Assembly: GCF_056712565.1 (NCBI RefSeq)
Contig: NZ_JBWXXM010000002.1
Origin: a plasmid
Strand: one strand, 5' to 3'
DNA length: 64,000 bases
Shown here: positions 21,347-34,607 of the stretch, in pieces
Position numbering within the stretch: position 1 is the stretch's first letter
How the letters are laid out: each line of letters opens with the position of its first letter
The notes under the pieces: generated by a model
Seen by the model: only the letters and a program-made list of their open reading frames with translations
Database searches by the model: none
What the model was told of the DNA's origin: nothing
Made by a program: the position numbers and the translations under genes

Positions 21347-21814
21347 TCAGGACTTTTTAGCGCTGTATTCTTTTATCAGTTCATCAACGGAGTGCAGAGC
21401 CAGCTTCTCTACCGCTTCACTTCGGGTCGAGCCACTCAGCGCAGCCAGACGGTCAATTTTTCTTAAAATCCGCATGCGTAGCGATAATGACACGGCTGTT
21501 TTTTTATCCTTATCGAGTACGACCTTCCCTGTGGACTCACCGGTTTTCAGTTCAGCATTCTGTGCGAGCGCTTCATTCATCCGGCGAAGGGTCTTTTTAT
21601 CCAGCTGGCCCGGATTAACGAGATGGTAGGAATGACCTGCCTTGCTGTATTTGATCTCCGCAGAATATGACTCGCGTAGCTCTTTGAGTGCCCGGGTTAA
21701 TGTCGGCTCTGAGCATTCCAGACTGGTTATAATGTCGGCAGCGGAAACGGGCTTGCCGGTGCCCAGTAAGTTGGCAAGCTTAAAAATCCGGGCCTGTCTG
21801 GTATTTAATTGCAT
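21347..21814 (-). CDS. terW: TerW-like DNA-binding protein
   Basis: 155 aa, position in ter locus, HTH-like SAADIITSLECSEPTLTRALKEL. Confidence 0.55.
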   Translation of the reverse strand: MQLNTRQARIFKLANLLGTGKPVSAADIITSLECSEPTLTRALKELRESYSAEIKYSKAGHSYHLVNPGQLDKKTLRRMNEALAQNAELKTGESTGKVVLDKDKKTAVSLSLRMRILRKIDRLAALSGSTRSEAVEKLALHSVDELIKEYSAKKS

Positions 21815-21831
21815 CGTAAGATTTAGCCTGC

Positions 21832-23040
21832 TTAAAGGGTTAGTGGTTCAATAGGCTGAAAAATGAAGGTACTGCTCATCTTTCGAATAACCGGGTGATC
21901 GCCTAACGCTTCAACCGGATCAATGTGTTCTAAGCCTGCAAAATTTACTGACGACATCTGGCTGCGACTGCATTTGCAGGACAGGATATACTCATCCTCC
22001 AGATAGCCGGTCCGCTTACTGACCCGTTGCGTAAAGCCTGACACAATCACGTTGTCGAACGGTAGCGTATGTAAAACGATACCGACCAGGCGGAACAAGC
22101 AGCCATGGACGTGGCGGGCATAGTTTTCGCGTACGGCTTTTTGCGTCATGGCTTTTTCCGTCAGCTCCGTGCCCCGGGCATTAACGCCGTAAATCTTATC
22201 AGGGAAATCTTCAATCTCAGCTAAATCAACATCCAGCAGGACTGCTGATAGCTCCGGCTTTACTTCAAATGCAACAAGCGTTTCACGCGGCCATTCAGTT
22301 TCTGCCAGCACACCCGCCAGGTATGATTCGAAAAACGCGGCGTCTGTCCGGAACTGCTGCCGGGCATCTGCCTGAGCCGTGGCGAGCCGTTTTTCATGTT
22401 CTTCAGCCTCAAACTTCCAGTTTGCATACTGTTCGGCCCAGGCCGTCCGTTGTTGCTGGTACCGGTGCTGTCGAAGGGTATTCTCACGCTCCACATCAAT
22501 CAGCTCCTGCTGCCACCGGCGAAGATTTTCGGCGTGGCGCTCAGCTTTAGCTGATTCCGATTCAAACCATTTACCCAGAAAACTAATGCCTTCGCTCTCG
22601 GCAGGCTTTTCCGGCAATGCAAGATAGTCTGGCTTTTCTGGACGCACCGGTGCCGGAACCTGAAAAGGCGACGTTCTGTTATGCAGGTATACTGCTTCCA
22701 GCTCTGCCCAGCTGATGCCTGTTTTAGGATCCGGCGTCAGCTCGTGAATATTACGGATTGCGGTCACCGCTGACATGAGATCAGCGGCTTCCTCCTCAAG
22801 CGCCTGTCTGAGCCCCGGGTCGGTAGCCGTCCGGTTCCCACCTCCGGAACGCGCGGCCCGATCAAGCCGGGTACGGTAACTCAGCCCGGTACCGGGCAAG
22901 CCCAGATTGGCATAGGTCCCCCGGCTTCCAAAAGAAACGGAAGCACCTCTCGGCCCGACACTCAGGCTCGGTGCACCGTTACTCAGGTTGAGGCGAACAC
23001 CAGGAATAATGTTGATCGACTTTCTGAATCTGAACCCCAT
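21832..23040 (-). CDS. hypothetical protein with Gly-rich DUF4236-like N-terminus, ter-associated
   Basis: MGFRFRKSINIIPGVRLNLS...GLPGTGLSYRT; 11 nt downstream of HpcH-like gene. Confidence 0.5.
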   Translation of the reverse strand: MGFRFRKSINIIPGVRLNLSNGAPSLSVGPRGASVSFGSRGTYANLGLPGTGLSYRTRLDRAARSGGGNRTATDPGLRQALEEEAADLMSAVTAIRNIHELTPDPKTGISWAELEAVYLHNRTSPFQVPAPVRPEKPDYLALPEKPAESEGISFLGKWFESESAKAERHAENLRRWQQELIDVERENTLRQHRYQQQRTAWAEQYANWKFEAEEHEKRLATAQADARQQFRTDAAFFESYLAGVLAETEWPRETLVAFEVKPELSAVLLDVDLAEIEDFPDKIYGVNARGTELTEKAMTQKAVRENYARHVHGCLFRLVGIVLHTLPFDNVIVSGFTQRVSKRTGYLEDEYILSCKCSRSQMSSVNFAGLEHIDPVEALGDHPVIRKMSSTFIFQPIEPLTL

Positions 23041-23050
23041 TATGATTTCC

Positions 23051-24010
23051 TTAATGATGCTGGGTCACGGTAAGTAATCTGATTCCATCAGCGCTTTGCT
23101 CGTTCTGTAACCCATAAAAACGAGCTCTGTCCAGAATGCCAGCCGCCCAGCGGCGATGTGTGGCGGGTTCACACATTGCTCCCTGCGACTTAAACACGGC
23201 CTGGGTAGAGTTCAGGATCCGCAGAGCGTCAGAATGCTCACCCTGAGTGACCATCAGCGCGTTTTGAATGACCTCTATCTGACCCGGGTGAATGGCCGTT
23301 TTCCCAACAAGCCCATGTGCCATATCAAGAGCCAGCTCTCTGGCCATTACGGCATGATCGTCAATATGCTCACATACGGGCGCGGTCAGGGCAAAATCAC
23401 GCGGGCCGAAGACCGAAACGAGCATTTTGATGACGTAGCCCATCGGGCTGTCATACAGCGTCAGGTCCCGGGGACGGCGAAGCGACACAACGTTCATAAG
23501 ATCGTTGCCGCCGATTCGAAGCGCAATAATGCGGTCGTGGCAGGGATGTTCCACCAGACGGGTGGCCAGCTCCCGCATCTGAACCACGTCAAAGACGTCT
23601 TCTGTTTCCAGCGTTGGCATCATGCACAGGTGAGTCCCGCCCATGATATCCCACCATTCAGCTAACGAACTGAGGGTAAATTTCGGCAACACAAACCCGT
23701 CGACAGCGGAAAGATCATAATGCGCTTTTAACCATCTGCCCATTTCGGCATGCCGGGGGCGAATGAACACCAGAGGCCAGTCATTTTTACCCAGGCTATG
23801 CATGCTGTTACTGAGCTCGTGCAGCAGGTGCTCCAGATTTTTGAGGGCGACGGGGATGTCTGCTTCACTGACAGCATCCTCCAGGCAAATCACCAGAGAG
23901 CGCAAACCCGGGATTTTCCCGTGCAGGACGGCATCAGCAATATCTTCCCGTGTTGCAGGCATGTATAGCGTGGCTCCCAGATTCCAGGGAGAAAGACGAT
24001 TTTTCATCAA
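23051..24010 (-). CDS. HpcH/HpaI aldolase / citrate-lyase beta-like TIM-barrel lyase (ter-associated)
   Basis: size and operon position match the ter biosynthetic module; weak recollection of CitE-like sequence. Confidence 0.5.
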   Translation of the reverse strand: MMKNRLSPWNLGATLYMPATREDIADAVLHGKIPGLRSLVICLEDAVSEADIPVALKNLEHLLHELSNSMHSLGKNDWPLVFIRPRHAEMGRWLKAHYDLSAVDGFVLPKFTLSSLAEWWDIMGGTHLCMMPTLETEDVFDVVQMRELATRLVEHPCHDRIIALRIGGNDLMNVVSLRRPRDLTLYDSPMGYVIKMLVSVFGPRDFALTAPVCEHIDDHAVMARELALDMAHGLVGKTAIHPGQIEVIQNALMVTQGEHSDALRILNSTQAVFKSQGAMCEPATHRRWAAGILDRARFYGLQNEQSADGIRLLTVTQHH

Positions 24011-32937: not shown

Positions 32938-32954
32938 AACAACGCTGAATCATA

Positions 32955-32979
32955 CCCCGGCAATGCCGGGGTTTTTTTT
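32955..32979 (+). terminator. rho-independent terminator after terE
   Basis: CCCCGG caat GCCGGGG followed by TTTTTTTT. Confidence 0.7.
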
Positions 32980-33365
32980 GGTTGCGATCCGCTTTCAGGA
33001 GGGAGTAGTAGAAAGGGGACTGGAAATTTCAGAAAGCAGGTCATGTTAATTCAGACCTGAGCCTTTTAAAGGCAGGAAACGGATTTATCTCTGGTTGCTG
33101 GTTAAAGCCGGTATTCCGTGCCTTTTATCAACAGAATGCCCCTCTGATATATGTTACTTTTGCGGTTTATGAAGGAACGGGATCTGGAACATAAGATACC
33201 CGGTCAATCAAAATTCCAGTTCAACAGGTATAGAAACTTCAGCGTGATGAAATATGGTGTCACACCATATATACGCCTCACCAGAAATCCAGCGTCCTGA
33301 ACTAAGCCTGGGGAACATATATAAGCGCTGCGCTTTAAAAATAATCAAAAATCAGGAGAGTTAAT

Positions 33366-34607
33366 GTGAATCTACAATCCGGACAAAACATACCGCTTCA
33401 GCAATCTGCGATCAGGCTGAATCTTCAGTACCCTGCCAAATCCGGCTTTAAAGGCGAACCCGATACCTGCCTCTTCCTGCTTAATGCTCAGGGAAAGGTA
33501 ACCGGCGATTCTGACTTTATCTTTTATAATAATCTGTCTTCTCCTGAAGGGGCAGTAAAGCTCGTTACCGGTTCTCAGCAGTCCAGCATTGAGATAGCAC
33601 TGGATCGTGTTCCGGCGAACGTCAGTAAGATTGCGATCACCGTTGTCATTGATGGTGAAGATACTATCAGTGGGCTCAGTTTATTGAGCATTCAGGCTCC
33701 TGGTATCGCTGATTTTCAGGCTGAGACTCAGGGCCGCAGTGAGAAAGCAATCATCCTGGGTGAAGTATATCGGCACAATGGCGCCTGGAAGCTTCGTGCG
33801 CTCGGGCAGGGTTTCAACGGTGGTCTTGAGCCTCTGGCCATTAGCTTTGGCGTTGATGTCGCACAGCCAGCTCCGCAGCCAGCAAAGCCTGCTCGTATCA
33901 GTCTGGAAAAGAAACTTGAAACCAGATCTCCGCGCCTCGTAAGCCTCGCTAAAAAAGCCTCGGTCAGTCTCACTAAAAATAAACTGGACACCCTTGAGGC
34001 AGCGGTTGCATTTGTACTTGACGCATCCGGCTCAATGAGTGGCCAGTTCAGTAAGGGCAACGTTCAGTCTGTGCTGGACCGCATCGCCGTTCTTGCCGCC
34101 CAGTTCGACGACGACGGTGAAATGGATGTCTGGGGATTTGGAGAGAAGCACAAGAAGTATCCAAACGTCACACTGGACAACCTGGACACATATATTCAGT
34201 CCATTCGCGGGTCTGGAAAGCGTTCAGCCTGGGAGAACCTGCCGGGACTTGGTGGGACAAACAATGAGCCCCCTGTGATGGAAGAAATTGTCGACTACTT
34301 TAAGGACTCGAAAATCCCGGTATATGTTGTATTTATTACCGATGGCGGGATCAGCAAGACCCGGGCGATTAAAGATGCAATCCGGCGTTCTGCCAACTAC
34401 CCCATCTTCTGGAAGTTTGTCGGCCTGGGTGGTTCAAGCTACGGTATCCTCAAAAATCTGGATGACTTTACTGACCGCCGGGTTGATAACACCCACTTCT
34501 TTGCCATGGATGATTTCGGTTCGATCAGCGATGAAAAGTTATATGATAATTTACTGGAAGAATTCAGACCGTGGATCGATGAAACAAAAAGGTTAGGCAT
34601 CCTGTAA
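33366..34607 (+). CDS. terF: tellurium resistance protein TerF (TerD domain plus vWA-like C-terminus)
   Basis: GTG start with AGGAGAG RBS; 413 aa; C-terminal FVLDASGSM. Confidence 0.8.

Follow-up and report, generated by a model that had tools for sequence, protein, structure and literature searches.

What is the gene cluster at positions 21347-34607 of the plasmid contig NZ_JBWXXM010000002.1 (RefSeq assembly GCF_056712565.1), is it complete, what might its enzymes make, and how might its genes be regulated? The stretch of this contig that was analyzed, 64,000 nucleotides long, is called the window, and all coordinates refer to it unless another locus is named. A first-pass annotation, made from the sequence alone, had described the cluster as a complete ter locus with all components intact, in which a minus-strand operon predicted to make a nucleoside-like metabolite diverges from terZABCDEF. 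The segment is the ter gene cluster of an IncHI2 resistance plasmid, a long-described system. As a whole it is best explained as an IncHI2 conjugative plasmid's ter locus that probably comprises four transcription units, with a predicted pathway from phosphoribosyl pyrophosphate (PRPP) to a riboside and candidate autoregulation by TerW. This reading is assigned a probability of about 85%.

Identity and extent of the ter locus

The segment 21347-34607 is 100% identical to Salmonella and Escherichia coli plasmids. The slightly larger interval 21000-34852 matches many RefSeq-annotated E. coli IncHI2 plasmids at 100% identity, and their gene calls, terW included, agree with those made here, which bears out the statement that the system is a known one. 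The plasmids with identical matches are large (209-306 kb), and a 97.6%-identical relative, pKPC-272, has been typed as IncHI2A. At least 80% of the region is present in 946 of 5,426 complete E. coli genomes and in 1,242 PLSDB plasmids. Because the same DNA occurs unchanged in hundreds of sequenced plasmids, the ter locus found here is ordinary; it is among the most often sequenced accessory clusters of enterobacterial plasmids, and the locus itself adds nothing new. The modest gain from its analysis lies in three results given below, a link between its HAD enzyme and a solved structure, a candidate TerW operator and a palindrome common to ter and the plasmid backbone, which could help to clarify the actual function of ter.

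The genes of the ter core are all on the plus strand: terZ (28388-28969), terA (28969-30126), terB (30149-30604), terC (30627-31667), terD (31716-32294), terE (32362-32937) and terF (33366-34607), the last with a GTG start. The first six were assigned by Pfam and RefSeq. TerZ, TerA and TerE have TerD domains, TerB and TerD match the Pfam families of the same names, and TerC is an integral membrane protein of the TerC/Alx family. TerF matches vWA-TerF-like (2.6e-69) and TerD (4e-35). TerD paralogues (TerZ, TerA, TerD, TerE and the N-terminus of TerF), TerB and TerC thus occur in the expected order with scores above gathering. The enzyme operon lies on the minus strand, divergent from terZABCDEF, with open reading frames (ORFs) and strands as originally claimed. 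All 14 genes of the segment begin with ATG or GTG and have zero internal stops. Orthologues at 52-97% protein identity have lengths equal or nearly equal to those of all 14 genes, and gene order and gene lengths are matched in loci from Klebsiella, Serratia, Shewanella and Marinomonas. For these 14 genes the description of the components as intact is correct.

The description of the segment as complete is mistaken, because the published complete locus has terXY and associated signaling genes, among further genes, on the same strand as the biosynthetic genes (PMC8115787). The boundaries of the locus had been drawn too tightly: terXY and the signaling genes are found at 13456-20884, beyond the segment, on the minus strand. 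RefSeq and profile searches identify a terY gene with a vWA domain (20246-20884), terX of the TerD family (19582-20223) and a second vWA-type terY (18944-19582). These are followed by genes for a vWA and TerY-C metal-binding protein (17818-18858; TerY_C, 3.2e-53) and a PP2C Ser/Thr phosphatase (16181-17818; PP2C_2, 1.2e-46). The last gene of the terY/PP2C/kinase module encodes a Ser/Thr kinase and is split after about 388 of its 499 codons by a 1196-bp IS5-family insertion on the plus strand (13792-14987), flanked by a TTAG target duplication (13788-13791 and 14988-14991). The truncated 5' part of about 388 codons (14988-16155) was recognized by comparison with pCTXM199_025970, in which the 499-amino-acid gene is intact, and the displaced 3' fragment (13456-13791) is collinear with positions 14656-14991 of the reference locus. 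The insertion also explains the 1200-bp left-side offset seen in BLAST comparisons with pCTXM199_025970. The vWA (TerY) and PP2C members of the TerY-P triad are whole and its Ser/Thr kinase is not. Because IS5 interrupts the kinase gene, the claim that all components are intact fails for this left extension.

On the other side of the locus, about 245 bp past terF, is an IS66-family element with ORFs that match HTH_Tnp_1, TnpB_IS66 and DDE_Tnp_IS66, at roughly 34853-37400 (both ends approximate). The best-matching IncHI2 plasmids lack this element, and their identity to the window extends no further than 34852. PADLOC returned zero matches to defense-system models besides weak helix-turn-helix (HTH) and phosphoribosyltransferase (PRTase) similarities. 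An Rfam search of 14000-36000 in a permissive E-value mode gave two sub-threshold chance matches only, neither a riboswitch nor a known small RNA.

The enzyme module and its predicted product

The enzyme genes of the minus strand encode a Ter-type ATP-grasp ligase (27006-28064; Pfam ATPgrasp_Ter, 1.7e-37), a PRTase_2 plus TRSP phosphoribosyltransferase (25854-26996; 5.8e-64 and 1.4e-23), a 257-amino-acid HAD-IIB phosphatase (25088-25861), StiP, formerly PRTase_1, with a PELOTA_1 domain (24007-25086; 4.6e-89 and 7.5e-25), and a TIM-barrel, HpcH/CitE-like C-C bond lyase (23051-24007; Pfam C-C_Bond_Lyase, 8.2e-114). Profile annotation, a check proposed with the first-pass annotation, upheld the assigned families by Pfam and, for the HAD protein, by a PDB match (6D3V/6D3W/6CJ0, E-value 2.7e-43 over the full length; TIGR01486, 3.6e-9). 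All five families of the Ter-associated module described by Anantharaman et al. 2012, as summarized in PMC11994780 and PMC7824862, are thus present next to the ter genes.

In the ATP-grasp protein the lysine of VCVKP and the magnesium motif ExN (in LLETNMRP) are retained, and the lyase keeps LEDAV and GGNDL motifs, recognized by eye, with weak matches to CitE and RipC. PRTase_2 has a canonical PRPP loop, TLVLIDDEATTGNT, which conforms to the type I PRTase pattern of four hydrophobic and two acidic residues followed by xxTGxT; D162, D163, T167, G168 and T170 are invariant in 7 orthologues. The corresponding StiP loop, IVFVDGWTGKG, is degenerate and has one acidic residue, and it is likewise invariant in 7 orthologues. 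A PDB sequence search with the lyase, ATP-grasp, PRTase_2, StiP and DUF4236 proteins found nothing close. The HAD protein was the sole family assignment initially in doubt. The mechanically called ORF (25088-26197) is too long for the gene and gave zero Pfam matches, and the 257-amino-acid protein itself gives only sub-threshold HAD-IIB scores under the Pfam and NCBIfam cut-offs. HAD motifs I-IV can be recognized by eye: D9-L-D11-D-T (DLDDT), T66 (VTARG), K198 and G221-D-S-L-S-D (GDSLSD).

The enzyme families, together with the model of Anantharaman et al. 2012 as later papers present it, suggest that the set would build a small riboside starting from PRPP. The lyase and the ATP-grasp ligase would make or decorate a base-like acceptor, which PRTase_2 would couple to PRPP to give a 5'-phosphoriboside. 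The HAD-IIB phosphatase would then strip the phosphate, by the synthase-then-phosphatase logic of the trehalose-6-phosphate, sucrose-6-phosphate and mannosyl-3-phosphoglycerate pathways, and StiP/PELOTA may provide a second PRTase-like step or a nucleotide- or RNA-binding step. The product would be sensed by the TerB/TerD proteins of a TerC-centered membrane complex, in the outline given by PMC11994780 and PMC7824862, and this complex would bring about tellurite resistance, phage inhibition and colicin resistance. The phenotypes, which the literature gives for R478 and Klebsiella, are those of Whelan 1995 and of a terC deletion in Klebsiella, as described in PMC12054061. The link between the enzymes and the ter genes is supported by a Pseudomonas megaplasmid, in which the five enzyme genes are co-directional and contiguous with terZABCDE.

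Several points weigh against the reading as a whole. No pathway metabolite is reported in the literature found on the module, so the chemistry given above is a prediction. The genes terZ-F alone make E. coli K-12 tellurite-resistant (PMC8115787), so the enzyme module is dispensable for tellurite resistance. The promoter and terminator calls discussed below are consensus matches, which over the region are no more numerous than those in shuffled sequence, the domain assignments of TerW rest on weak scores, and its binding to a palindrome is a prediction. A homologue of the HAD enzyme bears the name "trehalose phosphatase" in its deposition, and the activity studied was that of a trehalose-6-phosphate phosphatase (TPP), not that of a nucleotidase. 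For Acinetobacter baylyi, StiP is reported to be a protease (Reichert 2013, as cited in PMC11994780), and its profile comparison with PRTase_2 was not significant.

The HAD homologue in question raises the alternative that the module makes a sugar or disaccharide-type product, similar to trehalose, rather than a nucleoside-like one, and that the HAD protein is a true trehalose-6-phosphate phosphatase. The window HAD is 38% identical to the HAD in the same slot of the Pseudomonas ter module on pNY11173-DIM. That protein, encoded between PRTase_2 and StiP, has the annotation "trehalose phosphatase" and shares 93.5% identity with the crystallized "trehalose phosphatase" of PDB 6D3V (other entries, 6CJ0 and 6D3W; Cross et al. 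2018). The P. aeruginosa extrachromosomal "TPP" of that study is treated as a trehalose-6-phosphate phosphatase, and assayed as an active phosphatase, in PMC6838324, which cites Cross et al. 2018. Crystal structures and an assay therefore already exist, under another name, for one enzyme of the predicted pathway. The best Pfam and NCBIfam matches of the window HAD are also sugar-phosphate phosphatases (MPGP, S6PP and trehalose_PPase). Promiscuity in vitro is common among HAD enzymes, however, and a glycosyltransferase or trehalose-6-phosphate synthase is encoded in 0 of the 7 loci examined, while the HAD gene is always flanked by genes for two PRTase-type proteins in these seven loci and the PRPP loop of PRTase_2 is canonical. 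A trehalose-like product is therefore considered very improbable. The structures and the assay offer a practical route to the true substrate of the HAD enzyme. A less remote alternative concerns StiP, which may instead be a cysteine protease acting to process a partner protein such as a component of the Ter complex, so that the operon would consist of a four-enzyme pathway and a protease. "Cysteine protease StiP" is its name in Pfam and RefSeq, the protease activity in A. baylyi is accompanied by a tellurite phenotype in the account of Reichert 2013 given by PMC11994780, and the StiP alignment has invariant cysteines at positions 189 and 229. In hhalign, 7-sequence profiles of StiP and PRTase_2 gave a probability of 0.15% and an E-value of 0.39. 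Because this test was not significant, the "PRTase-like" label of StiP rests on the original definition of its family, PF11202, as a PRTase. The same alignment nevertheless places the segments VRAGVPLG and VFVDGWTGKG on the pyrophosphate and PRPP loops of PRTase_2 in the correct order, and the C-terminal PELOTA domain suits nucleotide or RNA binding. The protease reading of StiP is thus considered rather unlikely, and a five-enzyme riboside pathway is preferred.

The DUF4236 protein (402 amino acids, 21832-23040, minus strand; Pfam DUF4236, 1.2e-21) had been included in the biosynthetic module. It is a member of the operon; it is not evidently biosynthetic, because its fold is not enzyme-like and its homologues occur without the enzymes. 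An N-terminal beta domain is followed by a long helix and a C-terminal alpha/beta domain, and full-length homologues were found down to 28% identity. The Psychromonas ingrahamii gene (retrieved locus 9052-12977) lies between TerD genes without any of the five enzymes, and that of the Aeromonas veronii chromosome (retrieved locus 1912-11212) adjoins genes for vWA, PP2C, kinase and ZorA-like proteins, again with the enzymes absent. The Truepera gene is outside a ter context, and DUF4236 is absent from the Pseudomonas module. These distributions suggest that the protein could partner with TerD/vWA signaling components rather than with the pathway.

Probable transcription units and candidate regulatory sites

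Adjacent genes of the minus strand overlap by up to 8 nt or lie up to 17 nt apart, consistent with one operon. The best sigma-70-like promoter in the region on that strand is a TTGACA-17-TAGACT match (28112-28140), and its counterpart for terZ on the plus strand, again the best consensus match in the region, is TTGTCA-16-TG-TATGAT (28295-28322). Both lie in the 323-bp divergent intergenic region and are invariant in alignments with Klebsiella loci, in which the remaining spacer has diverged past recognition. A terminator-like hairpin with a 10-pair stem and a weak T tract (21312-21335, minus strand) begins 12 nt past the terW stop, and the gap between terW and terY is 462 bp. An intrinsic terminator with an 8-pair GC stem and T8 (32954-32980, plus strand) follows terE, and an equivalent hairpin and T-run are present within the 87-bp terE-terF gap of the Klebsiella-type locus.

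Four transcription units are probably present. The first would run from the promoter at about 28112-28140 through the genes for ATP-grasp, PRTase_2/TRSP, HAD-IIB, StiP/PELOTA, C-C lyase, DUF4236 and terW to the hairpin after terW, and the second, terZABCDE, from the promoter at about 28295-28322 to the strong terminator after terE. Because this terminator is strong and conserved, terF is probably a separate unit, transcribed on its own or through read-through. The fourth unit would comprise terY-terX-terY and the vWA-TerY-C, PP2C and kinase genes. The gene set and order of terZABCDEF are as first annotated; a single transcript for all of them is improbable. The terE-terF spacer itself (32938-33365) measures 428 bp in IncHI2 plasmids, and its extra approximately 340 bp relative to Klebsiella-type loci have no match elsewhere in the window or in the retrieved loci. 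A sub-threshold Rfam match to anti-hemB (E-value 0.052) overlaps the terminator, and the RefSeq locus tags skip one number at this spacer.

The last gene of the minus-strand operon, terW (21347-21814), was identified by RefSeq and encodes a 155-amino-acid regulator with a predicted N-terminal winged HTH and C-terminal ribbon-helix-helix. Matches to HTH_11 and HVO_A0261_N are weak, and RHH_1 is matched in 6 of 6 orthologues (best E-value 2.2e-5). In an AlphaFold2 model a winged HTH is followed by two helices, and its Foldseek matches are MarR/ArsR-type winged HTH proteins. TerW has been reported to regulate ter expression (Valkovicova 2011, as cited in PMC12054061). A 13-bp palindrome, ATCATRATATGAT, occurs exactly twice in the window, both times within the divergent intergenic region. 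Site 1, ATCATAATATGAT (28140-28152), abuts the -35 element of the biosynthetic promoter, and site 2, the near-palindrome ATCATGATATGAT (28310-28322), covers the extended -10 element of the terZ promoter. In IncHI2, Serratia and the two Klebsiella types, the distance from site 1 to the ATP-grasp ATG is 76-77 nt, and Shewanella and Marinomonas keep this site with a single mismatch; the end of site 2 is 66 nt upstream of the terZ ATG in every Enterobacterales locus examined. The sites are invariant even though the adjacent DNA has diverged past recognition. No copy of the palindrome is present in 135 kb of backbone of the Klebsiella plasmid or in the Pseudomonas locus, where terW is missing. ATCATRATATGAT is thus a ter-specific candidate operator for TerW, present on both divergent promoters, through which TerW could autoregulate both operons. 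Such a precise and conserved candidate makes the regulation of the two operons directly testable.

A host metal-responsive repressor of the Fur, Zur or MntR type, rather than TerW, might instead bind the promoter palindromes. The core of the Zur and Fur boxes of E. coli is similar to their central ATAATAT, and in Klebsiella both Zn(II) and Mn(II) act as inducers of ter (PMC12054061). Metal-loaded Zur and Fur repress, however, which is the opposite of the metal induction observed; the flanking half-site bases are unlike those of Zur/Fur boxes; and the palindrome and terW are found together even in Shewanella and Marinomonas, while the Pseudomonas locus lacks both. With metal regulation in the wrong direction, Zur or Fur is an improbable binder, and TerW is retained as the candidate.

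A second repeated sequence, the dispersed 11-mer AAAGTWACTTT, had been noted twice in the locus, and both copies were recovered: one in the ATP-grasp ORF at +348 (27706-27716) and one that starts 5 nt past the terD stop (32299-32309). The window holds 9 copies (at 828, 4399, 8592, 12037, 27706, 32299, 43970, 57114 and 62973) against 0.07 expected, and three of the nine are 5-27 nt past a stop codon. The 11-mer extends to a 13-bp palindrome, AAAAGTWACTTTT, with random flanks beyond. It is not specific to ter: 46 copies are present in 154 kb of the Klebsiella pneumoniae plasmid pMTY12138 (NZ_AP024789.1), whose backbone, with genes for MobH, TrhU, a Tus-like protein and Hha, is IncHI-like and in which the motif is clustered beside repB, at 15.7-16.5 kb and next to mobI. 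Its density is about 1.4-3 per 10 kb on the IncHI2 and the Klebsiella IncHI-like plasmid, with zero copies in six unrelated control loci. A literature search for the 11-mer string returned unrelated primers and sequences only. To the left of ter (window 1-13300) the backbone has, besides many genes for hypothetical proteins, those for a tyrosine recombinase, an Hha/YmoA protein and a Tus-like "replication terminus site-binding protein"; on pMTY12138 the last three are likewise grouped, in reversed order.

The two ter copies could reflect chance or hitch-hiking, with no role in ter expression. The plasmid-wide distribution of the motif is consistent with this, as are the ter loci of Shewanella, Marinomonas and Pseudomonas, which lack the 11-mer and appear complete. 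Conservation of the two positions argues otherwise. The codons AAA GTT ACT TT of the ATP-grasp copy are unchanged, synonymous positions included, in three lineages at 63-65% nucleotide identity, and only the central W varies in the intergenic alignment of the terD copy. In Serratia the homologous codons are changed and a new copy is found about 120 nt downstream in the same gene. Because this relocated copy is in another reading frame, selection on the DNA itself can be argued. Chance or hitch-hiking is thus a real but lesser possibility. A palindrome common to ter and the IncHI backbone points to a plasmid-level factor acting on ter, and it is tentatively proposed that ter may be wired through AAAAGTWACTTTT and an IncHI-type factor into a plasmid-wide regulatory or DNA-organizing network, while TerW separately controls both promoters via an undescribed ter-specific operator; the proposal is at present a doubtful one. 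TerW was considered as the binder of the 11-mer and judged less likely, as Shewanella and Marinomonas keep terW and the ATCATA palindrome without the 11-mer. The KorB O_B operators of the IncP plasmid RK2 are likewise short perfect palindromes with random flanks and many copies, both at promoters and within genes. The likeness to KorB O_B is one of analogy only; the palindrome of the window differs in sequence, and its copy number is much higher.

Comparison with known ter systems

The closest described system is the R478-type IncHI2 ter locus (Whelan, Colleran and Taylor 1995, as cited in PMC12054061), which has the gene set, order and divergent layout found here; the comparison was made through other IncHI2 plasmids rather than the R478 record. 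The window copy differs from it in carrying IS5 in the kinase gene and the IS66-family element past terF.

The ter locus of the K. pneumoniae NTUH-K2044 type (Vornhagen et al. 2021, PMC8115787) also has a biosynthetic strand with terXYW opposite terZABCDEF. It shares with the window both promoter palindromes, both 11-mer positions and the terE terminator, at protein identities of 62-97%. Its terE-terF gap is shorter (87 bp versus 428 bp), and past terF it has a further gene, for a HAD-family hydrolase, which has no equivalent in the IncHI2 window; a third 11-mer is 100-150 bp upstream of this gene. The feature is at 21693-22441 of one retrieved Klebsiella-type locus and at 1654-2459 of another, in the coordinates of those loci.

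The P. aeruginosa pNY11173-DIM module (retrieved locus 9998-20921), the source of the HAD that corresponds to the solved "trehalose phosphatase", encodes the same five enzyme families in the same order. Unlike those of the window, its enzyme genes are co-directional with terZABCDE, genes for a trypsin-like peptidase and a second HAD are inserted, and DUF4236, terW, the promoter palindrome and the 11-mer are all absent. The StiP of A. baylyi (Reichert et al. 2013, as cited in PMC11994780) shares PF11202 and a link to tellurite with the window StiP, which matches the full profile. The A. baylyi protein is described there as a protease, whereas the window StiP has a PELOTA domain and is encoded in an operon with PRTase and HAD genes.

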